A DNA stretch of 60,962 nucleotides, the filler included. It is 3 parts of 3 records of this genome, joined end to end, with 100 filler letters (N's around TTAATTAATTAA, not from the genome) between each part and the next. Parts side by side here need not be neighbours in the genome. Positions count along the whole stretch, not along the records: positions 32,148 to 60,962 come from SRR22947727_3291; 2 more parts are not named here. The stretch is one strand, 5' to 3'. A program made the position numbers and the translations under genes. This document shows, one piece after another, positions 12,157 through 59,475 of this stretch. Position 1 is the first letter of the stretch. Every line of letters begins with the position of its first letter. The notes beneath the pieces were generated by a model that worked only from the letters and a program-made list of their open reading frames with translations, ran no database searches and had not been told where the DNA came from.

Positions 12157-12157
12157 G

Positions 12158-32615: not shown

Positions 32616-33302
32616 CTAAAGCGGGTGTCGCACTAACCACGCTGTCAGAGTCTCGACGAGACTATCGGCTTCGGAAAAGTCGGTAGTACGAGGGTCCGTT
32701 CCTATCACACCCCAGATTGGGCTTTTCTTGTCATGCCGATCGATTGCGTCCAGTGTTTTGTCAAGACTTGGAAGTTGTGACATGTCGACGGTTTCCGGCG
32801 CGATTGCATGCATTAAATTCGTCTCGAAGGCCCCTGCGTGATCCGGTTCAATATTCGCAGCCACACAGCGGTTTACTGCCGTGGCAATGATGTTGAGACG
32901 GTCGCTTTTGGCATTCCAATCCGCAGCGAAGCGGTCAATCATCACCAATTGTTCATCTGCAAAATGGCCGCTGAAAATGATCAACCGCTCAACTTGCATC
33001 GCGCAAAGGCGTTCGGCAGTTCGAGCTAACATGGCTTCAATTTCGGCGGAGTCTTCCATCATAATCGTCCATGGGTATGCACTATGTCCGCCACCTGTTC
33101 CGAAATAAAGTGGCGGCATGACAAGCCCGCCACCTTGGTCAGCAGCACGAAGGCACAGGCCGTGCGCCGTGAGGGCGTCCAGCCCGACGGGCAGATGTTC
33201 GCAATGCCATTCGATCGTGCCGAGTGGCATCCAGATAGTGGATTTTTCCGCCAAAGCGGTGCGAATTTGATGCGGGCGCAGGCGTTCAATTTGCCGTGTC
33301 AT
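32616..33302 (-). CDS. Creatininase-family amidohydrolase
   Basis: GTIEWHCEHLPVGLD, SGH and DHAGAFET metal-ligand motifs. Confidence 0.88.
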   Translation of the reverse strand: MTRQIERLRPHQIRTALAEKSTIWMPLGTIEWHCEHLPVGLDALTAHGLCLRAADQGGGLVMPPLYFGTGGGHSAYPWTIMMEDSAEIEAMLARTAERLCAMQVERLIIFSGHFADEQLVMIDRFAADWNAKSDRLNIIATAVNRCVAANIEPDHAGAFETNLMHAIAPETVDMSQLPSLDKTLDAIDRHDKKSPIWGVIGTDPRTTDFSEADSLVETLTAWLVRHPL

Positions 33303-34273
33303 GTGTAAAAATTCCTTGCCCAGGCGTGCTTTTCTAATCGTTCGAGCAGCGCATCCGGCAGGTGATTTCCGTCTGAATAGGCGATGTTCATATCGACCTC
33401 CTGCGGGGTTTTCATACCCGGAATCAAAACGCTAACGGCATCGTGCGACAAGACGTATCGCATTGCGGCTTCGGCGAGGGTCGGGAAGGCGTCGCCGAGT
33501 TCACCCTTAAGCGCATCAAGCCGCGTCAAGGTTTGCGCGAACCGATCTCCGCGAAACATTTCGTGTTGTTGTGATCCGGTTTCCCAAGTGGCGTAGCTGT
33601 CTTTAGTCCAGTGTCCAACCAGCGAACCGCTGTCCAAGGGCACCCGTGCGATGATCGCGGTGTCGCTGGCTTTGGCGGCTCCGAACAATGCGTCGCGGGG
33701 CTGCTGTTCGAACAGGTTAAAAATGACCTGTTGCGAGCTTACCAACCCAAGGTGCGCCAAGTCTACGCCTTCGCCAGGGCGATTGTCGCGCAGCGAAACG
33801 CCGATTTGGTCGATTTTGCCTTCCCGGCGCAAATCATTCAGGGTTTCAAGCCAGTCCAATTCCAGATGACCGTTTGGCGCCCAAGTGTGCAATTGAAACA
33901 GATCAAGTCGTTCCACGCCAAGGTGGCGCAGCGAGTTTTCGACGTTCTCGCGAAGATGCCAATCGGGGAAACGTCCGCGAAAAGCAGGTGCGTTGTCACT
34001 TGCGTTTGGCCAGACAGTTGGTTGGGCCTTAGTCGCGACATAAATCTTGTCGCCGTTCCATTCCCGCAGCGCCCGTCCAATTATTTTTTCGGAATGTCCC
34101 GCCCCATAGAGCTGCGCGGTATCCACGAAATTTATGCCACGTTCAAAGGCGTGTAGCAGTGTGTATACGGAGACGTCATCGTCAACCGGGCCCCAAGCGC
34201 CGCCAATTTGCCAGCCGCCGAAACCAATTTCCGACACCATCCAACCTGTGCGGCCAAAACCGCGATACTTCAT
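33299..34273 (-). CDS. Aldo/keto reductase
   Basis: GINFVDTAQLYG, VATK, LDLFQLH, LIPGMK; start reset to MKYRGFG. Confidence 0.92.
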   Translation of the reverse strand: MKYRGFGRTGWMVSEIGFGGWQIGGAWGPVDDDVSVYTLLHAFERGINFVDTAQLYGAGHSEKIIGRALREWNGDKIYVATKAQPTVWPNASDNAPAFRGRFPDWHLRENVENSLRHLGVERLDLFQLHTWAPNGHLELDWLETLNDLRREGKIDQIGVSLRDNRPGEGVDLAHLGLVSSQQVIFNLFEQQPRDALFGAAKASDTAIIARVPLDSGSLVGHWTKDSYATWETGSQQHEMFRGDRFAQTLTRLDALKGELGDAFPTLAEAAMRYVLSHDAVSVLIPGMKTPQEVDMNIAYSDGNHLPDALLERLEKHAWARNFYT

Positions 34274-34397
34274 GTGGGCAAGTTCGCTTTGATTTTGTTC
34301 ATCAGCGCCTCCTTGGGTGTGGCCGCCGCAGGTGTGCGGCACTAATTGCTTTTGGGCAAACCTATCGGTGCGGTCATGCTTTGTGCAGACACGAAGC

Positions 34398-34413
34398 TGA
34401 TGTGAAACAATCA
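34398..34413. promoter_or_regulatory. Putative LacI operator TGATGTGAAACAATCA upstream of the AKR-creatininase pair
   Basis: Imperfect 16-bp palindrome; related copies at 35497 and 55854. Confidence 0.6.
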
Positions 34414-35448
34414 GGGCGCTGGCGGGATGTTCTCTGGTCCATAAAGCACAATGGGGACGTTTGAGACATAAGGGCGCGCGACTGGTCTGCCTTCGTAACC
34501 AAAGTGATCCATTAGGACATCCAGAGAGAATTGGGCTTGGAGGCGCGGGTTTTGGTCTAGCGTGAGGGTCATTATCCCATCGCGAAGCATCTGGGTCGTA
34601 TATTGGGTAAGTTCATGGCCGACGAACAACGGGCGCTTATGGAGTACGTCGGCTTCGATTGCTGCCCGGACACCAAGATTGGCGCCTCCGACATTATATA
34701 TCGCGGCGATATCTGGACGCTCGCGGAATGCCGCAATGAGCTTTTCCCTTGACCGGTCACGTTCGTCCAAACCCTCAACGACACCAACAATCGTCAACTT
34801 TGGGGCATGTTCCGTCAGGTACTCCTTGAATCCGGCGATACGATCTGCGTGGGATTGGAAACCGAGGTGACTGCATAAAACCATGACAGGGCCACCAAGC
34901 GGCACCATGCGCGAGACGAAGTAGCCTGCGGTTCGTCCAGCGGTATGATGATTGGTTCCAGCATAGGCGAGTTGTTTAGAACCCGACAGGTCTGAGATAA
35001 TCGAGATCACAGGAATGTTTCGTTTGCCGACATCATCTATCGCATCGTGGATCACGGAATCGTTCTGGCCATAAGCAATCACCGCATCGCAATCCGTCGC
35101 CCTTATGGCTGCGGCGAGGGACTCAGGGGTTTCATGGGGCAGAGTGGTGATGTGAAGGCTTATGCGCCTGTCGATAGTTTTAGCAAGGTTCCGAAACTCC
35201 AACGCAATGCGGGCGAGAAGGGGTAGATCGGGACGTGCAAGGATCAGATTGAGTCGGATAAGTGGCTTGTAGGATGGCGGCAATTGACGGCGAAGTCCAA
35301 GCGCGCGGGCCGCGTCAATGACCTTGCGGCGGACGTCTTCGCTCACGTTGCCACGTTCATTTAACACGCGATCAACAGTGGCCGTGCCGACACCGGCACT
35401 ACGCGCAACGTCTTGTAATCTTGGTCGTGAGTCGCCCTTTTTGGCCAT
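34411..35448 (-). CDS. LacI-family regulator 1
   Basis: HTH LQDVARSAGVGTATVDRVLN plus a PBP-like effector domain. Confidence 0.93.
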   Translation of the reverse strand: MAKKGDSRPRLQDVARSAGVGTATVDRVLNERGNVSEDVRRKVIDAARALGLRRQLPPSYKPLIRLNLILARPDLPLLARIALEFRNLAKTIDRRISLHITTLPHETPESLAAAIRATDCDAVIAYGQNDSVIHDAIDDVGKRNIPVISIISDLSGSKQLAYAGTNHHTAGRTAGYFVSRMVPLGGPVMVLCSHLGFQSHADRIAGFKEYLTEHAPKLTIVGVVEGLDERDRSREKLIAAFRERPDIAAIYNVGGANLGVRAAIEADVLHKRPLFVGHELTQYTTQMLRDGIMTLTLDQNPRLQAQFSLDVLMDHFGYEGRPVARPYVSNVPIVLYGPENIPPAP

Positions 35449-35496
35449 TTCGCCCCCTAAACTTACGTTGCAAGGGAGCATAGAATTTTTTGCAGT

Positions 35497-35626: not shown

Positions 35627-36640
35627 ATGGACGACTTAAAGAGCGGAACGCGGGACAAGCGCGGCAATTGGCGCCCCAATGACGCCATTGAAAACGCGCC
35701 GGTCTTTATCTGGCCCATTCGCCCGATGAAATTCCTGCGCTGGTTGCCAAGCTATTTCCTGCCGTGGAACCTGACTTTTTTTGCTATCAGCGTGGTGTTC
35801 TGGTTTCTGTTGACACCGTCCCGTGAGACACTCGAATCGGTTGAGTGGGGATGGGTGATTTACTTGTTTGTACGCAACTCCGCGATCGTGATCCTGTTTT
35901 ACGGGGCGCTAGAACTGCGATTGTATGTGAAGCGGCGTCAAGGGACACATTTCAAATACAACGGCAAGTTTCCGTCGGAACATCCGTCCGATGTATTCAT
36001 GTTCAAAAGCCAAAACGTGGACAACATCATCCGCACATTTGGCACCGGATTGCCGATTTGGACCGCCTATGAGGTCGGAATGCTGTGGGCCTGGGCCAAC
36101 GGCTGGGGGCCTTGGGCCACCTTTTCTGAACATCCGATTTGGTTGATTTGCTTTGGTCTGGTTCTTCCCATCCTGCACGAATTCCATTTCTATTGCATTC
36201 ATCGGCTGATCCATATTCCGGTGCTGTATAAGTGGATCCATTCGGTACACCACAATTCGGTAAACCCGTCGCCGTGGTCATCGTTATCAATGCACCCCGT
36301 TGAACATCTGCTGTACTGGTCTGGCAGCCTGATCCATCTGGTTTTACCATCGCACCCACTGCTCATGATCTATCACCTCAATATTGCGGGAACGGGAGCT
36401 GTGGTCGGGCATGTCGGCTTCGACATGATTGAGACAGGTGAGGATGGCGCGTTCGATACACATGCCTATGCCCACTACCTGCACCACAAGTACTTCGAAG
36501 TGAACTACGCCGATGGGATGATGCCATTGGATCGTTGGATGGGCACTTGGCATGACGGTTCGAAAACCGGTGACAAAATCATGCAAGATCGTTTTCGCAA
36601 GAAGAAAGAAAAAGCAAACGCGCGCAAAGGGGAGGCCTAA
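35627..36640 (+). CDS. Sterol desaturase / fatty-acid hydroxylase family di-iron membrane oxygenase
   Basis: His boxes HFYCIHRLIH, IHSVHH, MHPVE, GHVG, HYLHH, NY; start reset to ATG 35627 after AAGGGG. Confidence 0.9.
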   Translation: MDDLKSGTRDKRGNWRPNDAIENAPVFIWPIRPMKFLRWLPSYFLPWNLTFFAISVVFWFLLTPSRETLESVEWGWVIYLFVRNSAIVILFYGALELRLYVKRRQGTHFKYNGKFPSEHPSDVFMFKSQNVDNIIRTFGTGLPIWTAYEVGMLWAWANGWGPWATFSEHPIWLICFGLVLPILHEFHFYCIHRLIHIPVLYKWIHSVHHNSVNPSPWSSLSMHPVEHLLYWSGSLIHLVLPSHPLLMIYHLNIAGTGAVVGHVGFDMIETGEDGAFDTHAYAHYLHHKYFEVNYADGMMPLDRWMGTWHDGSKTGDKIMQDRFRKKKEKANARKGEA

Positions 36641-36756
36641 TGACCGTTGCTTACAAGTCTAGGTCGTACGCAGGTCGGACGTTCTAGCAAATGCCGGGTC
36701 CGATTGACCCACAACGAATGTCGTCAATTGTGACGGCGCAAAGGGAGGAAACTACA

Positions 36757-37734
36757 ATGAGTATCTTTAAGAATGTAATGGGGGCACTGCTGGCGACAGC
36801 TACGTTAGGCGTTGCACCGGTAATGGCTCAAGAAGGCGCAACCATCGCGATTATCGGTGGTCGTGCGGATGATGCGTTTTTCGCGAAAATTGGTCGTGGC
36901 ATTGATGATGCAACGCTTGTTGTCGAAGCCCATGGAGGCACCGTCAATTATTTGCAGTTGCAAACCTATGATAACATTGGTGGTGACGCTGCAAACCTTG
37001 TCCGAACAGCGATCAGCCAAGGTGTCGACATCATTGCGGTTCCAAATTGGGTTCCGGACGCGCAGGACGAGGCGATCGAGGCAGCTATGGCTGCGGGCAT
37101 TCCCGTTATGCTTTATAATGCTGGTGGCGGGGATAAGGCGGCAGAACTCGGCGCGATCAACTATATTGGCAACGAAGAATACCCTGCTGGCCTTGCTGGT
37201 GGTAAATACTTTGCCGAACATGGCGCGACGAACGTAATTTGTGTAAATACGGTGCCCGGTGCAGGTAACCTCGAAGCGCGCTGCGATGGCATCCGTGATG
37301 GGATGGCCGAGTCTGGTGGCGTTTCGGAACAGCTTCCGCTGCCAGCAAGCGCATTTGGAGATCCAACAGCGGTTGCCGAAGCGATCAAAGCGACATTGCT
37401 TGGCGATGAAACTATCGATGGTATCTTTACGATTTCCTCTGCGGATGCAGACAGTGCGTACATCGGGATGCAGCAGGCGGGACGGGTGGAAACCGTCGCC
37501 CTTGGTTCATTCGACATGAACGTGGCTGGCCTTGAGCGTATCCGTGACGGTGAACAGCTTTTTGCGATTGACCAGCAGCCCTGGTTGCAGGGCTTTCTGG
37601 CGGTGACGCTAGCCGATGGTTACGTGAACTATGGTCTAGCGATGGCGACGTCGCCGTTGCTGACAGGGCCGGGCATCGTGGATGCATCCAACATCGAAGC
37701 CACACTTAAGGGCGGAGAACTTGGCTATCGCTAA
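36757..37734 (+). CDS. Sugar/cyclitol ABC transporter substrate-binding protein 1
   Basis: Signal peptide; PBP type-1 motifs DDAFF, NLEARC, FAIDQQPWLQG; RBS GGAGG. Confidence 0.9.
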   Translation: MSIFKNVMGALLATATLGVAPVMAQEGATIAIIGGRADDAFFAKIGRGIDDATLVVEAHGGTVNYLQLQTYDNIGGDAANLVRTAISQGVDIIAVPNWVPDAQDEAIEAAMAAGIPVMLYNAGGGDKAAELGAINYIGNEEYPAGLAGGKYFAEHGATNVICVNTVPGAGNLEARCDGIRDGMAESGGVSEQLPLPASAFGDPTAVAEAIKATLLGDETIDGIFTISSADADSAYIGMQQAGRVETVALGSFDMNVAGLERIRDGEQLFAIDQQPWLQGFLAVTLADGYVNYGLAMATSPLLTGPGIVDASNIEATLKGGELGYR

Positions 37735-37747
37735 GACTGAATTTGTT

Positions 37748-37773
37748 CGGCCCGTAGACGTTTCTGCGGGCCG
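37748..37773 (+). terminator. Intercistronic hairpin after SBP gene 1 (attenuating or mRNA-stabilising)
   Basis: CGGCCCGTAGA-CGTT-TCTGCGGGCCG. Confidence 0.55.
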
Positions 37774-37838
37774 TTACATCGGCATGACCTAACGATATGG
37801 TTGCCACCAGCCACCGAACAAACACGGGGACATTTCCA

Positions 37839-38834
37839 ATGAGTCGTTTATCAATCGGCAGTCTATTTCGCCGACCAGAGGCCGGAGCCTTTCTGGGAAT
37901 GGTCGCAGTCATTGCCTTCTTTCTAATTTTCGGCGGCATAAATTTTTTGAAACCGTCCGGTATCGCGAGTTGGCTAAACGTTGCCGCCAACATTGGGATT
38001 ATTGCAATACCGGTCGGGTTGTTGATGATCGCAGGTGAATTAGACATTTCCATCGGGTCAATGATCCCCGCGGGGTCGATGATCGTGGCAATCATGTCCG
38101 GCCACTATGACTTCCCGATTTGGATGTCGATCATTGTGGTGCTCGGGTTTGGTGTAGTTGTCGGGTTTATCAACGGCTTTTTGGTCGTTCACACAGCCGT
38201 CCCGTCGTTGATTGTAACGCTTGGTACTTTGTTCGCAGTAGCGGGTCTCGTGCTTGGCCTATCGGTGCTGATCACAGGAACGACCAGCGTATCGATCAAG
38301 GCACCGGACTTTTACAAAGCCGTTTTCGGGCAATTTATTGGTGGTACCTATCAAGTTATCATCTTGTGGTGGTTTGCTGTGACAGTCGTTTATATTTTCT
38401 ACATCCACTATACAAAGTACGGCAATTGGATCTTCGCCATGGGAGGCGACCGTGAAAGCGCACGCAATGCCGGTATTCCGACCACGAAACTGACAATCAT
38501 CTTGTTCATCCTGTCGGCGTGTAGCGCGGCGTTCGTGGGCATGTGTCAGGCGCTGCTGTTCAACTCGGCGCAAGTGTCTGCGGGGATGTCTTATATCTTT
38601 AACGTGATCATTTCGGTGGTCGTCGGGGGCGTTGTCCTAACGGGTGGATTTGGGTCCGTCGTCGGGATCGTCTTTGGCACCATTACTTTTGCGGTGGTCA
38701 ATCAAGGCATCTATTTCACAAGTTTTGATCGAAACTGGTCAAGTTTGATTATCGGCGTGATGCTGTTGGCCGCCGTCCTGATGAACAACACCTTCCGCTC
38801 CATGGCGCTGTCTTATGCGCCAAAGAAGAAATGA
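37839..38834 (+). CDS. Sugar ABC transporter permease 1 (RbsC-like)
   Basis: [46 protein letters not shown]. Confidence 0.92.
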
Positions 38835-38844
38835 GGGCCAACCG

Positions 38845-39633
38845 ATGACTTCTCCAGTTCTGGAACTCCGTAGTGTTGATAAATCCTTTGGGCCGATCGA
38901 CGTGCTGCATGATATTTCCCTCAAGATGAATGAAGGCGAGGTGCTTTGCCTGCTCGGGGATAACGGTGCGGGTAAATCAACGCTTATCAAGACGCTATGT
39001 GGTGTCCACAAGCCGACACGGGGTTCCATCCTTATGGATGGCGCGGAGGTGACATTCTCCACCCCGCGAGAGGCCCAAGATAAAGGCATCGCCACCGTGC
39101 ACCAATTTGGCGGCACATTTCCGTTGATGAGCATTGGGCGCAGTTTCTTCGTGGGTGTGGAGCCCACCAAAGGATGGGGTCCGTTCAAGATCTACGATCG
39201 CAAGAAAGCCAATAAGATCGCGGTCGAGGCTGTGCAGAACTTCGGCATCACGCGCGTCGATGACGGTGATCGTCTGATAGGCGGCTTGTCAGGTGGTGAA
39301 CGTCAGTCGCTGGCCATTGCCCGCGCGGTCCATTTCGGCGCGCGTGTTCTTATCCTTGATGAACCAACAGCCGCGCTCGGGGTCAAACAGGCCGCACACG
39401 TTCTTCGCATCGTGAACGAGGCAAAACGCCGGGGATTGGCCGTGATTTTCATCACTCACCAGGTCATGCATGCCATGGCAGTGGGCGATCATTTCGCAGT
39501 GTTGATCCGTGGCGCTATCGCTGCCGATTTCCGCAAAGGCGAACGGTCCCGCGAAGAGATCACCGACTTGATGGCGGGCGGCGAAACGATGGCAGATCTC
39601 GAAAGGCAAATCGAAGGCTATGCCGATGCTTAA
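38845..39633 (+). CDS. Sugar ABC transporter ATP-binding protein 1 (single NBD)
   Basis: [25 protein letters not shown]. Confidence 0.94.
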
Positions 39634-39755
39634 GCTAACAACACGACGCGTCGAGCTCCCAAGGTGTCGGTCGGGGAGCGCAGTCCAGTCCGGAGGTTGT
39701 CTCCCGGCCTCCCACTCTGAAAGGCGCTCCCCTCTTTATGATCTGGCAAACCTAA

Positions 39756-40760
39756 ATGATCGTTAGAATTGCAGTCATCGGCGCAGGATTGATGGGCGCG
39801 GACCACGCCAAGATCATTGCGGAGGATTTGCCGGGCGCGCAGTTGCAAATTGTGTGCGATATGGACGTCACCCGCGCACAAGGCTTGGCGGATCGCTATG
39901 GGGCGGTCGATGTTGCCATCGACCCGGACATCGTGATTGCCCGCGATGACGTGGATGCGGTAATCTTGGCCAGCCCGGATTTTACCCATGCGCCGCTGTC
40001 ATTGGCCTGCATCAAAGCGGGTAAGCGGGTGCTATGTGAAAAACCTTTGTCGCAGCTGCCGGGTGAATGTCTTGCTGTCATGGCCGCTGAACAGGCCTCA
40101 GGTGCGAAACATGTGATGTTAGGTTTCATGCGCCGTTATGATCAATCTTATATCGAGATGAAGCAGGCGCTTGACGGTGGCACTTTGGGTCGCGCTTTGA
40201 TGATGCACAATTTCCACCGCAACGTGGAAACGCCTGCCGCTGATTTCACGGGCGCCATGGCGATCACAAACTCTGCGCCGCACGAATTTGACGTGGTTCG
40301 CCATGTGCTGGGAACAGAATATGCGTCGATCACGGCCTTTCAGCCAAAGCGCTCTGACGCGCTGGTGGCCCCTGTCGTCATGGTTCTGGAAACCACAGAT
40401 GGCCAGCTGGTGACAATCGAGATCAACAACAATGCCGCCTACGGATACGACGTACGCGGCGAATTGGTGGGCGAGGCAGGCGCGATTGCAATGAACAGCG
40501 TGGCCTACACCCGCACTGACATGAAACTGTCAAGTTCCACCCGCTATGAATCCGATTGGCGAGGCCGTTATCATGCGGCTTATGTTCGCCAAAACCGCGA
40601 CTTTCTGGCCTATGTCGAAACGGGAAAATTCCCTGACATTGCATCGGATTGCTGGGATGGATACTGCGCCGCGATTGTAGCCCAAGCTGGCATTGAAGCC
40701 TTGGTTTCGGGTACGAAAACACAGGTCGTGATGGCCCCCAAACCGGAGTTTTACGCATGA
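39756..40760 (+). CDS. Gfo/Idh/MocA inositol dehydrogenase-like oxidoreductase
   Basis: VIGAGLMG, LCEKPL, GFMRRYD, YGYDVR. Confidence 0.9.
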   Translation: MIVRIAVIGAGLMGADHAKIIAEDLPGAQLQIVCDMDVTRAQGLADRYGAVDVAIDPDIVIARDDVDAVILASPDFTHAPLSLACIKAGKRVLCEKPLSQLPGECLAVMAAEQASGAKHVMLGFMRRYDQSYIEMKQALDGGTLGRALMMHNFHRNVETPAADFTGAMAITNSAPHEFDVVRHVLGTEYASITAFQPKRSDALVAPVVMVLETTDGQLVTIEINNNAAYGYDVRGELVGEAGAIAMNSVAYTRTDMKLSSSTRYESDWRGRYHAAYVRQNRDFLAYVETGKFPDIASDCWDGYCAAIVAQAGIEALVSGTKTQVVMAPKPEFYA

Positions 40761-41716
40761 AACTGGGCTTTGTGTCTGACAGCCTTGGTGGAATGTCTTT
40801 CACCGACATGCTCGATCATGCGCAGCGCGTGGGCGTTTCGGGGGTTGAGGTAAACACCTGCGGGTGGTCAACGGCGCCACATTTCGATCTAAAAGGACTG
40901 CTGGGCAACAAGACGGCCCAAGCCGCCTTTCAGAAAGAGTTTTCTGATCGCAACCTTGAGATCATCAGCCTGAATGCTAACGGAAATCCGCTGCATCCGA
41001 CTGACCCGACACATGGACAGGGGCTGCGCGACACCATCTGCGTCGCGGGTGAAATGGGCATCAAGACCGTTTGCACCATGTCGGGCCTACCAGCAGGGTC
41101 CGCCAATGATGCTATGCCCAACTGGATCGTTTCCTCTTGGCCACCTGAAACGCAAGATATTCTGCGCTTTCAATGGAACGAGAAACTGATCCCGTTTTGG
41201 ATCGAAATTGTTGCGCTGGCACAGGAAAACGGGGTCGAGAAGATTGCATTGGAAATGCATGGCAACCAATGCGTCTACAACGTGCCGTCGCTGTTGAAAC
41301 TGCGCGAAGCTGTAGGTCCGATTGTCGGCGCTAACCTTGATCCAAGCCACCTATTTTGGATGGGGGCTGATCCGTTGATTGCAGCGCAGGCATTAGGGCA
41401 TGCAATTTATCACGTGCATGCAAAAGACACGATGCTTAATGCACCTGTGCAGGCAACCACCAGCTTACTGGAGAATGGCTCTCTTATGGATGTTCCGGCC
41501 CGCAGCTGGTCTTATATCACGCTCGGGTTTGGCCACGGTGAAGAATGGTGGCGACAGTTCTGCTACCGACTCAAAATGGCAAATTACGATGGTTGGCTTT
41601 CGATCGAGCATGAAGACGTTTTGCTGAACTCGTTAGAAGGATTGGAGAAGTCCGTGACGCTTCTTCAAGGTGTTATGCCTGATCGCCCGGCAGATTATAG
41701 GCCACAGGACATTTGA
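40757..41716 (+). CDS. Sugar-phosphate isomerase/epimerase TIM-barrel protein (inosose isomerase/epimerase-like)
   Basis: LEMH, NLDPSH, HVHAKD and SIEHED metal motifs. Confidence 0.88.
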   Translation: MKLGFVSDSLGGMSFTDMLDHAQRVGVSGVEVNTCGWSTAPHFDLKGLLGNKTAQAAFQKEFSDRNLEIISLNANGNPLHPTDPTHGQGLRDTICVAGEMGIKTVCTMSGLPAGSANDAMPNWIVSSWPPETQDILRFQWNEKLIPFWIEIVALAQENGVEKIALEMHGNQCVYNVPSLLKLREAVGPIVGANLDPSHLFWMGADPLIAAQALGHAIYHVHAKDTMLNAPVQATTSLLENGSLMDVPARSWSYITLGFGHGEEWWRQFCYRLKMANYDGWLSIEHEDVLLNSLEGLEKSVTLLQGVMPDRPADYRPQDI

Positions 41717-41785
41717 GGCCCGGGCGTGCGCCTGAGTGAATTGCCCAAACAGGGCGGTTGTTAAACAAAAGAAAAGGAGCGAGTG

Positions 41786-42097
41786 ATGGCCCAATGGATC
41801 AATGCCTGCGCACAAAATGAAATCGACCAAGAAGACGTGATCCGTTTCGATCACGGGGAGCGCACGTTCATCATCGTTCGCGATCACGAGGATAATTATT
41901 ATTGCTCTGATGGGTTGTGTACCCATGAGGAAGTCCACCTGAGTGATGGCTTGGTCATTGAAGCCACCATTGAATGTCCCAAGCATTCGTCAATTTTTGA
42001 TTGCACTAACGGTGAGGTGGAAACGCCGCCCGCCTGCGAAAACTTGCATACCTATCCGACCAAGCTTGAGAACGGACGGGTCTTTGTCGAGATTTAA
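41786..42097 (+). CDS. MocE-family Rieske 2Fe-2S ferredoxin (copy 1)
   Basis: DGLCTHE and IECPKH; EDVIRFDH shared with the copy at 57089. Confidence 0.92.
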   Translation: MAQWINACAQNEIDQEDVIRFDHGERTFIIVRDHEDNYYCSDGLCTHEEVHLSDGLVIEATIECPKHSSIFDCTNGEVETPPACENLHTYPTKLENGRVFVEI

Positions 42098-43395: not shown

Positions 43396-44211
43396 ATGAA
43401 CTTTGCACTTAATCATATGACAGTTCCAAACCTGAGCTACGTCGATTTCCTTGATTTGGCGGCCAAGCTTGAGTGTGTCGGGGTTGAAGTCCGCAACGAT
43501 ATCGATCGTGAACTGTTTGATGGAGTGGACCCCGTTGAAGCAGGTGAGATGGCAAAGGATAGAAGTCTGCGCCTCGTGGGTTTGAGCCAAGTCTATCCGT
43601 TCAACACATGGGACGCAGAACGTGAAGTTGCGGTGCGGGATCTGATTGCAGTCGCAGAGGCCGTAGGCGCCGAAACTATCAGTCTGATCCCGCGTAATGA
43701 CGGAACGGGGTTGGGCAACGGCGAACGCCAAGCCAACCTGCGCGTCGCAATGAAGGCGATTCTGCCGATGCTGATTGACGCAGGTATCGTCGCTTTGGTC
43801 GAGCCGCTTGGCTTTTTGCGGTCGTCGCTGCGCTCAAAATCGGAACTCGTCGATACCATCAACGCAATCCATGGAGACGATCACTTTAAACTGGTGCACG
43901 ATACGTTCCACCACACGCTTGCTGGTGAGAATGCTATTTTCACTCAAGCCACTGGAATTATTCATATCTCAGCAGTTGTCGATCCAGACTTGAAGATCAC
44001 CGAGATGGAAGACGAGCATCGGGTCTTGGTCGATGAGCAAGATCGTCTTGGCAATATCGAACAGATCCGTGCCCTGATTGCGGACGGATACGACGGACCA
44101 ATTTCGTATGAGTGCTTCTCTCCGAGAACCCATGCGATGCCGGATCCCTACTCGGAAATCAAAGCATCATTCGAATTCATTACCTCGCGACTGCGGCAGG
44201 AGGCCGCCTGA
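43396..44211 (+). CDS. TIM-barrel isomerase, 2-keto-myo-inositol isomerase (IolI)-like
   Basis: FALNHM, VEVRND, EPLGF, VHDTFHH, HISAV, SYECFS. Confidence 0.8.
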   Translation: MNFALNHMTVPNLSYVDFLDLAAKLECVGVEVRNDIDRELFDGVDPVEAGEMAKDRSLRLVGLSQVYPFNTWDAEREVAVRDLIAVAEAVGAETISLIPRNDGTGLGNGERQANLRVAMKAILPMLIDAGIVALVEPLGFLRSSLRSKSELVDTINAIHGDDHFKLVHDTFHHTLAGENAIFTQATGIIHISAVVDPDLKITEMEDEHRVLVDEQDRLGNIEQIRALIADGYDGPISYECFSPRTHAMPDPYSEIKASFEFITSRLRQEAA

Positions 44212-47272: not shown

Positions 47273-48343
47273 ATGAAACTTGGACTTGTAGGCTACGGTT
47301 TCGGTGGCCGGATTTTTCACGCGCCGTTCATTCAGGCCGCTGACGGCGTCGAGATCGGCGGCGTGGTGGCGCGGTCGGCCGACAAGATCGCGCAGATAGC
47401 CGTCGATCTCCCCGGTGTTCCGGTCTTTGCGAGTCTGTCCGATCTGATCGCAGATGGCAGCTTCGACGTGGTGACAATCACAACCCCGCCCGCGACACAT
47501 ACGCCTTTGACGCTTGAGGCTATTGAAGCCGGATTGCACGTGGTCTGCGACAAACCGTTCTCGATGAATCTTCGGGATGCCGCCCAAATGGCTGGGGCAG
47601 CGAAGCAGAAGGGCGTTTTGCTGAATGTGTTTCAGAACCGTCGGCGCGACACCGATTTGGTTACACTGGCTTCCTTGATTGATGCAGGAGAATTGGGGGA
47701 TATCCAGCGCGTCCACAATCGGATGGACTTCGATCAGATAGAAACGCTAGAGCGAGGGCCAGATGGAGGTTTGTTGCGCGATCTGGGAAGTCATCTCGTG
47801 GATCAAATGCTCTGGCTGTTAGGGCCAGTTGAGTTTGTTGATGCGCAAATCAACCATCTCGAATTTTCTGAAGGCCGCACGGACGCAGATTTCGTGATCC
47901 ACCTGCGCCACGTTAGCGGCGCTCACAGCTATGTTTCCGCGAGCAGAGCCAATCATTTCGATGCCCGTGAACTTCGGGTTTACGGGACAAAGGGCGCTTA
48001 CGTTGTCAATGGCACCGACGTGCAGGCCCGCGCGGCCATTGATGGCAAACGACCCGCTACCTCCGACAATTGGGGCGAGGAACCGCAATCGGCTTGGGGA
48101 ACGCTTTATTATGAAAGCGGCCCGCGCAGCATTCCGTCCCTTCGATCCGATTACAGCGATTACTACACCGAATTTGCCAAAGCAGTTCGGGATGGCACAG
48201 ATGGGCCAGTCCCTGCGCGCCAATCTTTACGAACTGTCGAAGTGCTGGACGCGGCGCGCATCGCCGCTGCATCAGGGCAGATTGTTCAACTTGATTCAAC
48301 ACTACAACAAACCGACACACCGGTAGACTGGAGACTATTATGA
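47273..48343 (+). CDS. Gfo/Idh/MocA oxidoreductase, IolW/YdgJ (scyllo-inositol dehydrogenase)-like
   Basis: GLVGYGFGGRIFHAP, VVCDKPF, FQNRR, DLGSHLVDQ. Confidence 0.85.
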   Translation: MKLGLVGYGFGGRIFHAPFIQAADGVEIGGVVARSADKIAQIAVDLPGVPVFASLSDLIADGSFDVVTITTPPATHTPLTLEAIEAGLHVVCDKPFSMNLRDAAQMAGAAKQKGVLLNVFQNRRRDTDLVTLASLIDAGELGDIQRVHNRMDFDQIETLERGPDGGLLRDLGSHLVDQMLWLLGPVEFVDAQINHLEFSEGRTDADFVIHLRHVSGAHSYVSASRANHFDARELRVYGTKGAYVVNGTDVQARAAIDGKRPATSDNWGEEPQSAWGTLYYESGPRSIPSLRSDYSDYYTEFAKAVRDGTDGPVPARQSLRTVEVLDAARIAAASGQIVQLDSTLQQTDTPVDWRLL

Positions 48344-49350
48344 CCGTTCGTTTTGCAATTCTGGGTGCTGGTCGGATCGGCCAGGTTCATGCCCGCGCTG
48401 TCGCTTCAACCGAGGGCGCGTCCCTTGTCGCAATCGCCGATCCTATGGCGGCTGCGGCGCAAAAAGTGGCTGACAATTACGGTTGCGACATCCGCTCTAT
48501 TGACGCGATTGCCGCAAGCGATGATGTCGATGCCGTGGCTATTTGTACGCCGACAGACACTCACGCCGACTTGATTGAGCAATTTGCCGGCGCCGGAAAG
48601 GCAGTGTTCTGCGAAAAGCCGATCGATCTTGATCTGGAGCGGGTCAAGGATTGCCTCAAGACCGTCAGCGAAGAAAACGCGACCTTGATGGTTGGCTTCA
48701 ATCGTCGGTTCGACCCTGATTTTATGACGTTGAAGAAGGCTATTGACGACGGCAAGATCGGTGACGTCGAGATGGTCACGATTTCCAGCCGCGATCCCGG
48801 CGCACCACCTGCGGAATACATCAAGGTGTCGGGCGGTATTTTCCGCGACATGACAATTCATGATTTTGACGTGGCGAGATGGTTGCTGGGTGAAGAAATC
48901 GCAACCGTGCAAGCGGCGGCATCTGTCCTGACCGACCCCGAGATCGGTAAGCTGGGCGACTACGACAGCGTCAACGTCATCCTGACGACGGAAAGCGGAA
49001 AACAATGCACCATCACCAATTCGCGTCGTGCAACCTATGGCTACGACCAGCGGATTGAGGTTTTGGGATCCAAGGGGTCAGTCGCGGCCGAAAACATGCG
49101 CGAAGCCAACATCGTGTTGGCGGACGAGAGCGGGTTCCACCAGCCGCCGTTGCTCGACTTCTTCATGACGCGCTATATCGCTGCTTATGCCAACGAGATA
49201 GCCGGATTTGTTGCAGCCGTTTCGGGCAAGACCGCAACGCCAACCACCGGCCACGACGGAATGGTGGCGCTGGCACTGGCGGATGCGGCTTTGTTGTCAG
49301 TGGCGGAGCAGCGCGTGGTGAAATTGTCGGAACTAAAGGTTTCGACATGA
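48340..49350 (+). CDS. iolG: myo-Inositol 2-dehydrogenase
   Basis: GAGRIG, FCEKP, GFNRRFDP, SGGIFRDMTIHDFD, YGYDQRIE. Confidence 0.93.
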   Translation: MTVRFAILGAGRIGQVHARAVASTEGASLVAIADPMAAAAQKVADNYGCDIRSIDAIAASDDVDAVAICTPTDTHADLIEQFAGAGKAVFCEKPIDLDLERVKDCLKTVSEENATLMVGFNRRFDPDFMTLKKAIDDGKIGDVEMVTISSRDPGAPPAEYIKVSGGIFRDMTIHDFDVARWLLGEEIATVQAAASVLTDPEIGKLGDYDSVNVILTTESGKQCTITNSRRATYGYDQRIEVLGSKGSVAAENMREANIVLADESGFHQPPLLDFFMTRYIAAYANEIAGFVAAVSGKTATPTTGHDGMVALALADAALLSVAEQRVVKLSELKVST

Positions 49351-51272
49351 CCAAGACCCTTGATTTAATCACGATTGGTCGAAGTTCGGTTGATCTCTAT
49401 GGCGTGCAGATTGGTGGACGCCTAGAGGACATGGGGGCGTTTGATAAATATATCGGTGGCTCACCAACGAATATCGCCTGTGGGACTGCGCGGTTGGGGT
49501 TGAAGTCTGGGGTTGTCACGGCGGTTGGTGATGAACACATGGGCCGCTTCATTAAGGAACAACTGGCGCGGGAAGGTGTGAGCACGAAGGGGGTGAAAGT
49601 TGACCCTGACCGCCTGACGGCACTGGTGTTGTTGGGTATCCGCGACAGCGAACAATTCCCGTTGATATTCTATCGCGAGAACTGCGCCGATATGGGACTG
49701 ACGGTGGATGATGTCGACGAGGAGTTTATTATGTCGGCCCGTGCAGTGGTGGCGACAGGCACACACCTGAGCCATCCGCAGGTCGAGGCGGCGACGCTGA
49801 AGGCATTAGAAATCGCGCGGACTAATGACATGCAGACCGCGCTTGATATTGATTACCGTCCAAACTTGTGGGGCGTTGCGGGCCACGGTGATGGCGAAAG
49901 CCGTTTTGTTGAAAGCGCGGAAGTTACGTCCAAGCTTCAGACCACTTTGCATTTGTTTGATTTGATCGTGGGCACCGAAGAGGAGTTCCACATAGCTGGG
50001 GGCACCACCGACACCATCGCGGCGCTACGGGCCGTCCGCGCCGTGTCAGGTGCAACTTTGGTGTGTAAGCGCGGCGCGGATGGTGCGGTGGCGTTTACGG
50101 GTGACATTCCGGAGATCCTTGACGATGGCCAATCCGGTCCGGGCTTTCCGATTGAGGTCTTTAATGTCTTGGGCGCGGGCGACGGCTTTATGTCCGGCCT
50201 TCTCAAGGGGTGGCTGGACGGTGAGGATTGGGCAAACACGTTGAAATATGCCAATGCCTGTGGCGCCTTTGCCGTTTCGCGACACGGTTGCACTCCAGCT
50301 TATCCATCTTGGGACGAACTCCAGTTTTTCTTTGAGCGCGGCATCAAGCAACCCGATCTGCGCAACGATGTCGAACTGGAACAGGTCCACTGGGCTACGA
50401 ACCGTCGGGGCACTTGGTCTTCGGTCAAAACTTTCGCGTTTGATCACCGTTTGCAGCTTGAAGAGATGGACGGGTACAGCCTGAAGAAAGCCGGTGCCTT
50501 TAAACGACTCTGCCTTGATGCGGCTCTGCAAGTGCAGAACGGGCAGCCGGGTTTCGGAATTCTATGTGACAACCGGATCGGGCGTCGCGCGCTTCATGCC
50601 GCCAGCGGATCAGGACTGTGGATTGGCAGACCGACAGAATTGCCAGGATCACGCCCGATCGAGTTTGAGCCGGAGTTGGGCGAGGATTTTGGCCAATTGC
50701 GAGAATGGCCGAGAGAGAATGTCGTGAAACTGTTGGTCTTTTGTCATCCAGATGATGACGTCGATACAAAGAAGACTCAGGAGGAGCGGGTTAAGCGCCT
50801 ATTTACGGCGGCGCGGCGCAACGATTTGGAATTCCTGCTTGAGGTGATCCCATCCAAGGTTGGCCCCGTCGATGATATGACGACGCCAAAACTGATCCAG
50901 CAATTTTACGATGTCGGCGTCTATCCCGATTGGTGGAAGCTTGAACCGTTCAAGACTGACGCCGCATGGTCCAACGCGGTAGAGGCAATCGAGCGCAACG
51001 ATTCGCGCACGCGCGGGATTGTGGTTCTGGGTCTTGATGCCCCCCAGAGCGAGCTTGCAGCGTCTTTTGCGCTCGCGGCGAGACAGCCGTTGGTCAAAGG
51101 GTTTGCTGTTGGCCGCACCATCTTTGGTGATGCGGCGCGTGCATGGATGCAAAATGAAATGTCGGACGCTGACGCGGTTGATCATATGGCGGCTCGCTTC
51201 GCAGGGCTTTGCGACGTCTGGGATGCGGCGCGTGTTGATGCCCGATTGAATAGGGAAAAAGCTAATGGTTAA
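49347..51272 (+). CDS. iolC: 5-dehydro-2-deoxygluconokinase with C-terminal DUF2090 aldolase domain
   Basis: GRSSVDLYG, DIDYRP, NVLGAGDGF, FAFDHR, PDWWKLEP, GFAVGRTIF. Confidence 0.95.
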   Translation: MTKTLDLITIGRSSVDLYGVQIGGRLEDMGAFDKYIGGSPTNIACGTARLGLKSGVVTAVGDEHMGRFIKEQLAREGVSTKGVKVDPDRLTALVLLGIRDSEQFPLIFYRENCADMGLTVDDVDEEFIMSARAVVATGTHLSHPQVEAATLKALEIARTNDMQTALDIDYRPNLWGVAGHGDGESRFVESAEVTSKLQTTLHLFDLIVGTEEEFHIAGGTTDTIAALRAVRAVSGATLVCKRGADGAVAFTGDIPEILDDGQSGPGFPIEVFNVLGAGDGFMSGLLKGWLDGEDWANTLKYANACGAFAVSRHGCTPAYPSWDELQFFFERGIKQPDLRNDVELEQVHWATNRRGTWSSVKTFAFDHRLQLEEMDGYSLKKAGAFKRLCLDAALQVQNGQPGFGILCDNRIGRRALHAASGSGLWIGRPTELPGSRPIEFEPELGEDFGQLREWPRENVVKLLVFCHPDDDVDTKKTQEERVKRLFTAARRNDLEFLLEVIPSKVGPVDDMTTPKLIQQFYDVGVYPDWWKLEPFKTDAAWSNAVEAIERNDSRTRGIVVLGLDAPQSELAASFALAARQPLVKGFAVGRTIFGDAARAWMQNEMSDADAVDHMAARFAGLCDVWDAARVDARLNREKANG

Positions 51273-53094: not shown

Positions 53095-53999
53095 TGGCTG
53101 TCAAAATTGGCATTTCCCTAATCGCTTGGCAGAACGATGACCTGCCGGACTTGACCGCCGGATTCACGACCGAGGGCGCAATGGAGGACGCAGGGCGCAT
53201 CGGCTATCAGGGTGTCGAACGCGGCCGCCGGATGCCAGCCGATACGGATGGGCTGCGCAGCTATCTCGACCGTTACGGCGTGTCGCTGTGTGGGGGGTGG
53301 TGTTCAGGCAGCCTGATGACCGCCTCGCTCGAGGATGAGAAAGCCGCCGTGCTTCAACAAGTAGAACAATTCGTGGCACTTGATGCGCCTTGCATCGTTT
53401 ACGCTGAATGTTCGAACAGCGTGCAGGGCGACCTTTCTATGCCCGTTCGTAACCGCCCGAAGTTAAGCCGTGACGACGTGAAATCCTACGCATTAAAGCT
53501 GACGGAACTAGCCAAATGGATGTCGGACAAGGGGATGAGGCTGTCATATCACCACCATATGGGCAGCATGATTGAAGACTCCGAAGACATAGATTGGCTC
53601 ATGGAGGGGTCGGGCCCCGAAGTGACGCTGCTATATGATACAGGCCATTTGCTATTTGCGGGGGCCGACCCGCTGGAGGTACTCGATCGATGGGGTGACC
53701 GCGTGCACCATGTTCATTTCAAAGACGTGCGTCCCGACAAGATGGCATGGGTTCGCACAGAAAATCGCAGCTTTCTGGATGGCGTGCGGGCAGGGGTTTA
53801 CTCAGTACCAGGCGATCCCGAAGGCTGCATTGATTTTCAGGCAATAACAGATCGGCTTAAGGCGATGGATTATGGCGGCTGGATTGTGGTCGAGGCTGAG
53901 CAAGATCCGGCGCTGGCTCCGCCGTATGAATATTCAAAGTTGGGCTATGATCATATCGTCGACATTTGTGGCCGCTCTGGCCTGACACTCAAAAACTGA
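53094..53999 (+). CDS. iolE: Inosose dehydratase
   Basis: AWQNDD, YHHHMG, DTGH, HVHFKD, WIVVEAEQDP. Confidence 0.95.
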   Translation: MAVKIGISLIAWQNDDLPDLTAGFTTEGAMEDAGRIGYQGVERGRRMPADTDGLRSYLDRYGVSLCGGWCSGSLMTASLEDEKAAVLQQVEQFVALDAPCIVYAECSNSVQGDLSMPVRNRPKLSRDDVKSYALKLTELAKWMSDKGMRLSYHHHMGSMIEDSEDIDWLMEGSGPEVTLLYDTGHLLFAGADPLEVLDRWGDRVHHVHFKDVRPDKMAWVRTENRSFLDGVRAGVYSVPGDPEGCIDFQAITDRLKAMDYGGWIVVEAEQDPALAPPYEYSKLGYDHIVDICGRSGLTLKN

Positions 54000-54009
54000 A
54001 GGGAACGTC

Positions 54010-57088: not shown

Positions 57089-57400
57089 ATGGCAAACTGG
57101 ATTGACGCCTGCGCGGCAGACGACATCGACGAAGAAGACGTGATCCGTTTTGATCACGATGGGCGCACCTTTGCGGTTTATCGCTCGCCCGATGACAATT
57201 ATTTCTGCACCGACGGACTTTGCACTCATGAACAGGTGCATCTGGCAGATGGTCTTGTGATGGATCACACCATTGAATGCCCTAAACACAACGGTCAGTT
57301 TGACTATCGTACGGGCGAGGCAACACGCACACCTGTCTGTGTGAACCTTGGGGTGTATCCGGTCAAGGTTGAGGGCGGTCGCGTCCTGATCGACATTTGA
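57089..57400 (+). CDS. mocE: MocE-family Rieske 2Fe-2S ferredoxin (copy 2)
   Basis: DGLCTHE, IECPKHNG. Confidence 0.9.
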   Translation: MANWIDACAADDIDEEDVIRFDHDGRTFAVYRSPDDNYFCTDGLCTHEQVHLADGLVMDHTIECPKHNGQFDYRTGEATRTPVCVNLGVYPVKVEGGRVLIDI

Positions 57401-59435: not shown

Positions 59436-59475
59436 ATTTGGGCCCTTCCGCCGCACTCCATTTTGAAAGCCAATA

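Follow-up and report, generated by a model that had tools for sequence, protein, structure and literature searches.

Results

Gene content of the locus

The DNA analyzed here, a stretch of 60,962 nucleotides that we call the window, comes from a Rhodobacterales bacterium. At positions 35627 to 42097 it carries a plus-strand row of seven genes, in which the genes of an ATP-binding cassette (ABC) transporter, a GFO-type dehydrogenase and a TIM-barrel protein stand between a membrane oxygenase and a Rieske ferredoxin:

35627-36640, plus strand: FA_hydroxylase-superfamily membrane oxygenase of 337 residues, predicted di-iron catalytic subunit (PF04116)
36691-37734, plus strand: periplasmic substrate-binding protein, CUT2 type (PF13407)
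37797-38834, plus strand: ABC permease (PF02653, 153 bits)
38815-39633, plus strand: ABC ATPase of 272 residues with a single nucleotide-binding domain (PF00005)
39756-40760, plus strand: IolG-like inositol/D-chiro-inositol dehydrogenase paralogue (GFO_IDH_MocA domains)
40757-41716, plus strand: xylose-isomerase-like TIM barrel (AP_endonuc_2, PF01261, 85.9 bits)
41786-42097, plus strand: MocE-family Rieske [2Fe-2S] ferredoxin, here Rieske-2 (TIGR02377)

A preliminary description, made from the letters alone, had reported a His-box membrane enzyme at the head of this row, a MocE paralogue at its end and no reductase in between. Every gene that it named was found where it had been placed, and these three points were borne out as well. 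The oxygenase matches PF04116 and has the eight histidines; the ferredoxin scores 145.4 bits against TIGR02377, the model of the MocE family of 2Fe-2S ferredoxins (cut-off, 136.15), and shares 62 of 103 residues (60%) with the other MocE protein of the window, MocE-1; and the only close MocF is the downstream copy at 57401-58609.

The row is part of an inositol "super-locus" that spans 32.6 to 60.4 kilobases (kb) of the window. Its minus-strand part comprises a creatininase-family gene, an aldo-keto reductase gene and a LacI regulator gene. On the 3' side of the row, LacI, TIM-barrel and ABC-system genes each appear a second time, together with a further GFO gene; there follow, in order, a complete iol set, a third LacI gene, a MocD-like FA_desaturase gene, MocE, MocF, a PanB-like gene and PurU. 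The MocD-like protein and MocE-1 constitute the first oxygenase system of the window. The flanking genes that matter below are the following:

32616-33302, minus strand: creatininase-family hydrolase, divergent from the row, probable module member (PF02633, 108.8 bits)
33299-34342, minus strand: aldo-keto reductase, probable module member (PF00248, 167 bits)
34411-35481, minus strand: LacI-family regulator, divergent from the oxygenase gene (LacI and Peripla_BP_4 domains)
48340-54816, plus strand: iolG, iolC(+J), iolD, iolE and iolB, a complete set (all above the NCBIfam equivalog cut-offs)
55974-57077, plus strand: MocD-like FA_desaturase oxygenase (PF00487, 124 bits)
57089-57400, plus strand: MocE-1 (TIGR02377, 183.5 bits)
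57401-58609, plus strand: MocF-type NAD(P)H:ferredoxin reductase (Pyr_redox_2 and Reductase_C domains)
58626-60360, plus strand: PanB-like paralogue, then PurU (formyl-tetrahydrofolate deformylase), after mocDEF

Within the row, intergenic distances range from -20 to 122 bases. Promoter-like and terminator-like sites in the row did not rise above shuffled expectation, and no operator-like inverted repeat was found in the LacI/oxygenase intergenic region. Since the promoter and terminator scans were uninformative, we use the term operon on the strength of tight packing and conserved synteny. Four marine metatranscriptome libraries, each from a different study, contain contigs (at least 99% identity to the window) that span portions of the binding-protein, permease, ATPase, dehydrogenase, TIM-barrel and Rieske genes. 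One of these contigs (36629-37843) joins the 3' end of the oxygenase gene, the binding-protein gene and the start of the permease gene, and another (41592-41827) joins the TIM-barrel and Rieske genes. Such libraries may contain DNA, and the contigs cannot demonstrate single transcripts; their cover of the oxygenase gene is thin and patchy and says nothing on its expression. They faintly suggest that the row is expressed in the sea.

The oxygenase protein

The ATG at 35627 is preceded by a ribosome-binding site, AAGGGGA; a longer open reading frame (ORF), starting at 35318, was rejected since it runs into the divergent LacI gene. The predicted protein scores 68.1 bits against PF04116 (FA_hydroxylase; cut-off, 31), and its histidines form the boxes H192x3H196, H205x2H208H209 and H283x2H286H287. 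For this superfamily, the accessible part of PMC3304488 gives the eight-histidine definition HX3-4H, HX2-3HH, HX2-3HH. Seven of the eight histidines do not vary across 34 relatives, and H283 is kept in at least 90% of them. A hydropathy scan gave hydrophobic segments at residues 42-65, 72-97 and 170-192 and a weaker one at about 141-163; with three to four such segments N terminal to the His domain, the oxygenase is predicted to be an integral membrane protein. Polar residues conserved in the hydrophobic segments include N84 and a TAYE motif.

Database searches placed the protein in its superfamily and little further. No NCBIfam model matched at an E value of 1e-5 or below, neither single-sequence nor profile searches of the PDB gave a meaningful match, and the ESM Atlas returned "sterol desaturase" clusters only. 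A word-indexed search found 3003 relatives, of which the best 120 (65 to 99% identity) all match PF04116 and are named at most "sterol desaturase family protein." An exhaustive search of representatives at 50% identity found 3180 proteins at E values up to 1e-3 and only 127 at 1e-30 or below, so that the oxygenase group is a narrow clade in a large superfamily. The protein of the window is 98% and 96% identical to those of the Litoreibacter meonggei and Flavimaricola marinus loci, respectively, and 112 plasmid records carry a homologue, among them pSymA of S. meliloti 1021. Two further proteins were set aside: P0222, in which the oxygenase is fused to a restriction-enzyme C-terminal domain, is uninformative, and the root-exudate-induced fatty acid hydroxylase of B. 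phymatum pSym, which the accessible part of PMC5789663 describes as less than 40% identical to other bacterial orthologues, was not counted, the plasmid homologue being on a different replicon.

The family name "sterol desaturase/methyl-oxidase," under which the preliminary description had introduced the enzyme, is a generic annotation label only. Nothing in its setting is that of a sterol enzyme: the neighbors are of sugar-transport and inositol type, the donor is a Rieske protein, and the fusion partners described below are FNR-type and Fer2 domains, not cytochrome b5.

Conservation of the module

We took 77 loci with a related oxygenase, 62 of them proteobacterial, with oxygenases 48 to 98% identical to that of the window (the close loci), and 15 from Acidimicrobiia, and searched them by tblastn with the window proteins. 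A number of contigs break off a few kb or less from the oxygenase gene, so that the counts of module genes are lower bounds. In 43 of the 62 close loci the oxygenase is accompanied by at least one of the ATPase, dehydrogenase, TIM-barrel and Rieske genes. Taken singly, the ATPase gene (at least 70% identity) is present in 33 close loci, the permease gene (at least 50%) in 32, the binding-protein gene in 31, the dehydrogenase gene (at least 50%) in 26, the MocE-like Rieske gene (at least 55%) in 20 and the TIM-barrel gene (at least 55%) in 18. A LacI gene lies near the oxygenase gene in 39 close loci and directly beside it in L078, L079 and L080. Gene order varies, with the oxygenase first, in the middle or last and the Rieske gene before or after the dehydrogenase gene, which argues for selection on co-occurrence rather than common ancestry of one arrangement.

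The extent of the module is defined by a 120-kb Fuscovulum plasmid (L080), where an island of ten genes, encoding the creatininase-family hydrolase, aldo-keto reductase, LacI regulator, oxygenase, binding protein, permease, ATPase, MocE, GFO dehydrogenase and TIM barrel, stands among replication and repair (plasmid housekeeping) genes. Besides this isolated module, 10 of the 62 close loci combine the oxygenase gene with the creatininase-family gene, and 10 combine it with the aldo-keto reductase gene, which in L011 is co-directional and downstream of the TIM-barrel gene. To the model of the diketo-inositol hydrolase IolN, the creatininase-family protein of the window is only distantly related (37 bits; cut-off, 245).

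Inositol genes recur in these surroundings. The oxygenase gene follows iolB in L047 and stands with a MocD-like gene beside iolE and iolD in L081, and a 35% identical relative follows an inositol-oxygenase-family gene in L084. In three loci (L004, L045 and L081) the PF04116 oxygenase and a MocD-type enzyme share one operon with one Rieske gene. Judged from these neighborhoods, the placement of the row is nonrandom and marks what appears to be a conserved sugar/cyclitol module.

A second oxygenase paralogue is present in 10 of the 62 close loci (L010, L012, L014, L018, L044, L045, L046, L049, L050 and L061). There the two paralogues, about 52% identical, flank a LacI gene, and the second stands first in an ABC operon of larger size, which has two genes for binding proteins and as many as three for permeases and ends in the dehydrogenase, TIM-barrel and Rieske genes.

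Rieske ferredoxin and electron supply

The Rieske-2 gene more likely starts at the ATG at 41786, behind GGAG, than at the GTG at 41783. Its ligands, C46-x-H48 and C65-x-x-H68, are invariant in 20 sequences. The MocF-type reductase gene lies about 15 kb downstream of the row, and a near-identical genome (G002) has the same arrangement, with two MocE-family genes and one close MocF (99% identity) at 15.6 kb from Rieske-2; a second MocF match in that genome is 38% identical and contains a TGA. Since the downstream MocF is the only close copy, we infer that it serves the row, and the reductase at 57401-58609 is probably common to both oxygenase systems.

Evidence for the pairing comes from other genomes. 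Nine loci have the oxygenase gene and a MocE-family gene side by side or with MocF alone between them: L008 (Rhizobium lusitanum), L013, L023, L040, L078 (S. meliloti 1021 pSymA), L079 (Ensifer canadensis), L082 (Bradyrhizobium), L083 (Mesorhizobium) and L088. Eight of the nine gave no MocD homologue, and in the ninth, L082, none is annotated; on pSymA, the unit consists of LacI, oxygenase and MocE only. In L003, L006, L008 and L088 the gene next after the Rieske gene is a MocF homologue, in L079 one gene stands between the two, and in L082 and L083 the Rieske gene is followed by an annotated FAD-dependent oxidoreductase. Moreover, members of the oxygenase clade (42 to 50% identity) are fused to FAD_binding_6, NAD_binding_1 and Fer2 domains in P0132 (677 residues, 42% identical) and P0165 (544 residues, truncated). 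By their domains, these two proteins represent a predicted self-sufficient form of the enzyme, with an FNR-type reductase and a plant-type [2Fe-2S] ferredoxin.

Adjacency, MocF linkage and fusions together provide the genetic coupling that characterizes the multicomponent membrane di-iron monooxygenases, and they are good evidence that a soluble NAD(P)H-ferredoxin chain supplies the oxygenase with electrons. They support the prediction that Rieske-2 is the partner and electron donor of the oxygenase, and we consider it quite likely that the enzyme is a three-component oxygenase. A complex prediction for oxygenase and Rieske-2, run with alignments unused, scored 0.09 against a mark of 0.34 and speaks neither for nor against binding. 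In the nearest genome compared (G001), the module is missing, and the sole MocE-like match, below the cut-off, lies far from the FA_hydroxylase genes; G002 and G003, to which loci L001 and L002 led, served for comparison in its place.

Two further genomes show other combinations of these families. Flavimaricola marinus (G003), which also has a module of the type found in the window, has four MocE-family genes above the cut-off in total, and on its contig C44, at about 63950-65266, a further FA_hydroxylase gene adjoins a third MocE-family gene. A locus in a 1.6-Mb genome (L113, G212:C1:466000-485999) combines a MocD-like gene, MocF, MocE, a PanB-like gene, a second MocD-like gene and an FA_hydroxylase-family gene, that is, three membrane oxygenases with one common ferredoxin and one common reductase.

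Transporter, dehydrogenase and TIM barrel

Among the NCBIfam models, the binding protein matches the rhizopine binding protein best (NF052284, 156.6 bits; cut-off, 420). Its only relative in the PDB at E values up to 1e-10 is 4ru1, presumably solved with myo-inositol bound, which we take as a lead only. The ATPase has a single nucleotide-binding domain in place of the fused double domain of about 500 residues that is usual in CUT2-type systems, and no other gene of the module is as well conserved as the ATPase gene (70 to 90% identity across loci).

The dehydrogenase falls below the cut-offs of both NF052679 (254.6 bits; cut-off, 540) and TIGR04380 (192 bits; cut-off, 355). Its top match in the PDB is an unnamed dehydrogenase (3ec7, E value of 1.5e-60), and the nearest named structure is the inositol/D-chiro-inositol dehydrogenase IolG of B. 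subtilis (3mz0, E value of 2.3e-59). The TIM barrel is 30% identical to IolE of the window over 125 residues; it has no significant similarity to the neighboring TIM barrel at 43396-44211, and no match to IolI in the PDB at E values up to 1e-3. We regard it as a putative enzyme of the inosose isomerase, dehydratase or epimerase type.

A second, unrelated type of TIM barrel, annotated "sugar phosphate isomerase/epimerase" and free of Pfam matches at E values up to 1e-6, occurs in L079 (13655-14500) and in L008, L056, L082 and L083. It recurs, alongside MocF, in the rhizobial version of the cluster, and in three loci it occurs together with a formaldehyde dehydrogenase gene.

One-carbon genes

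Genes of one-carbon (C1) metabolism are linked to the oxygenase. An S-(hydroxymethyl)glutathione dehydrogenase gene lies inside the cluster in Ensifer canadensis (L079), Mesorhizobium (L083) and a Rhizobacter metagenome-assembled genome (L056). A PanB-like paralogue is found near the oxygenase in 18 of the 77 loci: it directly adjoins the oxygenase gene in L009, L020, L031 and L038, comes next after the TIM-barrel or Rieske gene in L010 and L013, and is also present in L082, L084, L088, L107 and L113. The PanB-like protein of the window scores below both cut-offs (118 bits against 272 and 98.6 bits against 207.55, with the first 65 or so model positions missing) and is therefore not a genuine PanB; candidate reactions for it are a C1 hand-off or an aldol-type step on a keto-cyclitol. 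PurU of the window, at 425.9 bits (cut-off, 223), is genuine. The linkage of formaldehyde dehydrogenase, PanB-like and PurU genes indicates release of a one-carbon unit.

Two precedents bear on how that unit may arise. According to the accessible part of PMC10107442, which cites Bahar 1998, mocDEF with inositol genes is the published model of rhizopine (3-O-methyl-scyllo-inosamine) catabolism; and alkylglycerol monooxygenase (AGMO), which has the eight-His fatty-acid-hydroxylase motif, cleaves ether bonds, as stated in the accessible parts of PMC3617469 and PMC3304488. Together with the C1 linkage, these precedents make O-demethylation the most economical reading of the reaction, to which we would give roughly even odds.

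Discussion

Our comparison of gene neighborhoods leads us to propose that the row at 35627-42097 encodes a three-component O-demethylase for a methylated cyclitol that would feed the adjacent iol pathway, a reading to which we assign a probability of about 0.5. Its parts differ in strength. That the substrate is soluble and imported is likely. Four features point to a methylated cyclitol: the IolG-like dehydrogenase, the presence of the TIM barrel, the iol set next door and the recurrent iol, MocD-like and inositol-oxygenase-family neighbors; the more specific proposal of a methyl-inositol is a tentative one, at somewhat less than even odds. In this pathway, a methylated cyclitol (an inositol methyl ether, e.g., pinitol or a relative) would be imported by the binding protein and the ABC transporter, and its O-methyl carbon would be hydroxylated by the membrane di-iron enzyme on the cytoplasmic side of the membrane. 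Electrons would pass from NAD(P)H through MocF, encoded 15 kb downstream, and Rieske-2 to the di-iron center. Collapse of the resulting hemiacetal would release formaldehyde and a free inositol isomer, which the IolG-like dehydrogenase and the TIM barrel, perhaps with the aldo-keto reductase and the creatininase-family hydrolase, would convert to an inosose able to enter the adjacent iolG/C/D/E/B pathway.

The preliminary description had proposed that the enzyme was repurposed to oxidize a methyl group on a soluble cyclitol, supposedly other than the MocD substrate, by analogy with sterol C4-methyl oxidases. Three points of this view gain support: the oxygenase goes with the module, whose genes, rather than lipid genes, accompany it in 43 of the 62 close loci; it has a dedicated MocE-type ferredoxin, with the reductase encoded elsewhere; and oxidation of a methyl group on an imported soluble cyclitol would be the most economical chemistry. 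Attack on a C-methyl group finds less support, as the linked formaldehyde and C1 genes fit O-demethylation better. The neighborhoods of homologues, which that description had named as a check, agree with it for the close clade, whereas distant relatives (31 to 44% identity) often stand in other contexts.

Several observations weigh against the proposed demethylase. At the thresholds used, 19 of the 62 close loci have no module gene. One of these (L037) is less than 3 kb long, and in L028, L031 and L042 a LacI regulator still lies beside the oxygenase gene, in L031 with a PanB-like gene as well. Among the 124 ORFs that we scanned from 8 of the 19 loci and from 4 of the 15 Acidimicrobiia loci, other settings came to light: sulfatase and PhyH genes in L053, SDR and FAD oxidoreductase genes in L041, and enolase-superfamily, CUT1 ABC and lactonase genes in L057. 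A formaldehyde dehydrogenase gene was found in only the three loci named above, any role of the PanB-like paralogue in C1 metabolism is putative, and the binding protein falls short of the rhizopine equivalog score. Finally, the accessible part of PMC9788770 reports that Erwinia and Serratia degrade pinitol via iol genes and that mutants in vanB-type demethylases are unaffected, so that demethylation is not obligatory everywhere.

The wider family adds to these points. In an even sample of 301 alphaproteobacterial genomes, the oxygenase profile matched in 19 (E values up to 1e-40), at 37 places. Only 8 of the 19 have a MocE-family match at E values up to 1e-20, only 4 have one above the cut-off, and only 3 (G082, G153 and G212) have a MocE gene within 10 kb of the oxygenase gene. 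Most of these matches are 31 to 44% identical to the oxygenase of the window, and members of the close clade occur only in G153 and G250. The scarcity of MocE confines the Rieske partnership to the close clade and some relatives; it does not characterize the wider family as a whole. From the same sample we took 32 loci and scanned 110 of 153 flanking ORFs, leaving out the oxygenase ORFs and those at the outer edges. Sugar-type neighbors were found in 12 of the 32 loci and neighbors of betaine, methylamine or C1 type (OpuAC, MTTB, GCV_T, DMFA2_C and DAO) in 7, with L098 in both groups, which means that the substrates of the wider family are not all cyclitols; the neighbors of the distant relatives hint at other polar methylated compounds. 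L100 and L106 have enoyl-CoA hydratase or CoA-transferase neighbors, and no genes of fatty acid synthesis or of sterol, hopanoid or carotenoid metabolism were found among the neighborhood ORFs scanned.

The 15 Acidimicrobiia loci (L062 to L076; 35 to 39% identity) have none of the module neighbors, and in a quick tree, from which nine rows with stops or X were dropped, their oxygenases form a separate long-branched clade. They are, on this evidence, a separate subfamily. In 10 of the 15 loci there are two or three tandem paralogues, and the genes around them, of Lyase_1/ADSL-like, luciferase-like monooxygenase and NmrA/DUF2867 type, include none for sugars. Relatives of 31 to 44% identity occur in one to three copies in small alphaproteobacterial genomes of 1.4 to 2.8 Mb (e.g., G036, G056, G095, G139, G212 and G269) and in seven copies in G158; some of those in L085 to L116 lie beside betaine-type ABC, MTTB, GCV_T, DMFA2-like or DAO genes. 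Elsewhere in the window, at 12001-14000, the G+C content falls to 0.44 (0.51 to 0.58 in neighboring segments), around a gene for a Lit-like lipoprotein transacylase.

The same three-component enzyme might act on a methylated sugar or glycoside, such as an O-methyl hexose of algal or plant polysaccharides, with the dehydrogenase and the TIM barrel processing the freed sugar. The transporter is of the generic CUT2 monosaccharide type with a binding protein far below the rhizopine equivalog score, and some relatives are found next to genes for ribokinase and GH88 (L082), for enolase-superfamily proteins and lactonase (L057) or for a sulfatase (L053). We nevertheless think this unlikely, given that the dehydrogenase is nearest to inositol dehydrogenases, that iol, MocD-like and inositol-oxygenase-family genes recur beside the oxygenase gene, and that the row of the window lies directly upstream of a complete iol set. 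Quite doubtful, too, is the reaction that the analogy with sterol C4-methyl oxidase implies, namely, hydroxylation of an unactivated C-H bond or C-methyl group of a deoxy- or C-methyl-cyclitol, any hydroxymethyl group then being removed by the PanB-like paralogue after oxidation of the neighboring carbinol. Characterized members of the superfamily mostly hydroxylate C-H bonds, reversed PanB chemistry (hydroxymethyl transfer next to a keto group) would fit, PanB-like genes are tightly linked to the oxygenase, and sequential hydroxylations would be in keeping with the two paralogues seen in 10 of the 62 close loci. Against this, formaldehyde set free by O- or N-demethylation is the simpler explanation for the formaldehyde dehydrogenase of three clusters; in L004, L045 and L081 the oxygenase stands in one operon, with one Rieske gene, together with MocD-type enzymes, whose published role is in rhizopine catabolism; and our searches gave no data on how C-methyl-inositols are broken down.

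An imported amino-cyclitol or other nitrogenous osmolyte might instead undergo N-demethylation or a different oxidative dealkylation, which would likewise produce formaldehyde. Such a reaction would suit the OpuAC-type betaine transporter, MTTB, GCV_T, DMFA2-like and DAO genes that adjoin distant relatives, as well as the ectoine transporter genes beside L083; yet in the close clade the oxygenase is accompanied by genes for sugar-type binding proteins, for the IolG-like dehydrogenase and for the TIM barrel, and the module of the window has no aminotransferase or deaminase, which makes this a very unlikely account of the row. Least of all do we expect an ordinary hydroxylase or desaturase of membrane lipids, hopanoids or carotenoids, co-transcribed with sugar genes by chance. 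The Pfam family, the annotation as "sterol desaturase family protein," the lipid terms in GO and the integral membrane nature of the protein all point that way, but the sugar/inositol synteny persists across many gene orders and taxa, the oxygenase has a dedicated soluble Rieske ferredoxin, reductase fusions and LacI-type regulators, and fatty acid, sterol, hopanoid and carotenoid genes were missing from the scanned neighborhoods, apart from the CoA-type neighbors in L100 and L106.

A bolder generalization, in which we place little confidence, is that the FA_hydroxylase superfamily holds a sizeable bacterial branch for water-soluble osmolytes, the close clade being ferredoxin-driven oxidases of cyclitol methyl ethers or C-methyl groups. 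In its boldest form, the oxygenase may hydroxylate the C-methyl group of algal C-methyl-inositols (mytilitol and laminitol), the IolG-like dehydrogenase may make the neighboring ketone, and a reversed PanB reaction may pass the hydroxymethyl group to tetrahydrofolate. On the same view, the distant relatives (31 to 44% identity) beside betaine, methylamine or C1 genes, copies in small alphaproteobacterial genomes included, may likewise remove methyl groups from polar compounds.

Legumes, conifers, mangroves and many algae contain methylated inositols, for example pinitol, ononitol and quebrachitol, as some of their most abundant soluble carbon compounds. In the root exudate of Mimosa, pinitol is the top component, at 145 uM (accessible part of PMC5789663). 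The literature that we searched, most subscription journals lying outside its coverage, yielded no gene for a bacterial methyl-inositol demethylase; nor did it yield a paper that pairs an enzyme of the fatty acid hydroxylase family with a Rieske ferredoxin, which is not proof of absence. If the proposed O-demethylase is confirmed, it would name the missing first enzyme of methyl-inositol use and extend a "lipid" enzyme superfamily to soluble substrates. It would account for the "sterol desaturase family protein" annotations on rhizobial symbiosis plasmids and in marine Rhodobacterales, and it would offer both a compact LacI-controlled, ferredoxin-driven demethylase for rhizosphere engineering and a tool for tracing consumers of plant and algal cyclitols.

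One of the nearest known systems is the MocD-MocE-MocF "ferredoxin oxygenase complex" of Sinorhizobium meliloti L5-30 and Rhizobium leguminosarum (Bahar 1998, via the accessible part of PMC10107442). Both have a membrane His-box oxygenase, a MocE-family Rieske protein, a MocF-type reductase, a MocB-like binding protein, a MocA-like GFO dehydrogenase, a TIM barrel and a dependence (for the row, a predicted one) on the inositol pathway; at our locus, the MocA-type GFO dehydrogenase, TIM barrel, MocE and MocF are present as family-level matches, with MocF outside the row. However, the catalytic subunit of the row belongs to PF04116 (FA_hydroxylase) and not to PF00487, the MocD-like gene being in a separate unit. 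The regulators are of LacI type and not MocR, the binding protein scores below the rhizopine equivalog, and the row has no reductase.

AGMO (TMEM195) has the same eight-histidine motif as the oxygenase of the row, and in cleaving ethers by hydroxylating the carbon beside the oxygen it uses the chemistry proposed here for O-demethylation. AGMO is eukaryotic, acts on lipids and uses tetrahydrobiopterin, whereas the row has a Rieske donor in a bacterial sugar operon. The sterol enzymes of ERG25/ERG3 type share the Pfam family, the His boxes and the integral membrane nature of the oxygenase. For these and the remaining lipid hydroxylases of PF04116, cytochrome b5 is the electron donor, and the substrates are sterols or other lipids; the row, by contrast, has a Rieske/FNR-type electron supply and a sugar context, with neither b5 nor sterol genes nearby, and no NCBIfam or PDB sequence match ties its oxygenase to the sterol enzymes. 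For the metabolic half of the pathway, B. subtilis offers a lead: there, IolG and the TIM-barrel isomerase IolI bring D-chiro-inositol, the product of pinitol demethylation, into the iol pathway. Likewise, the IolG-like dehydrogenase of the row is followed by a xylose-isomerase-like TIM barrel, albeit one that, as noted above, does not match IolI.

In its layout, the row resembles AlkB-rubredoxin and XylM-XylA, in which a membrane His-box di-iron hydroxylase works with a small Fe-S protein and an NAD(P)H reductase, the components being sometimes fused, as in P0132. The oxygenase of the row comes from a different family, its carrier is a Rieske protein, and its predicted substrate is polar and not a hydrocarbon. 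As predicted from its components, the system works like the AlkB/XylM/MocD class, but with an FA_hydroxylase catalytic subunit, a Rieske carrier and a cyclitol module.

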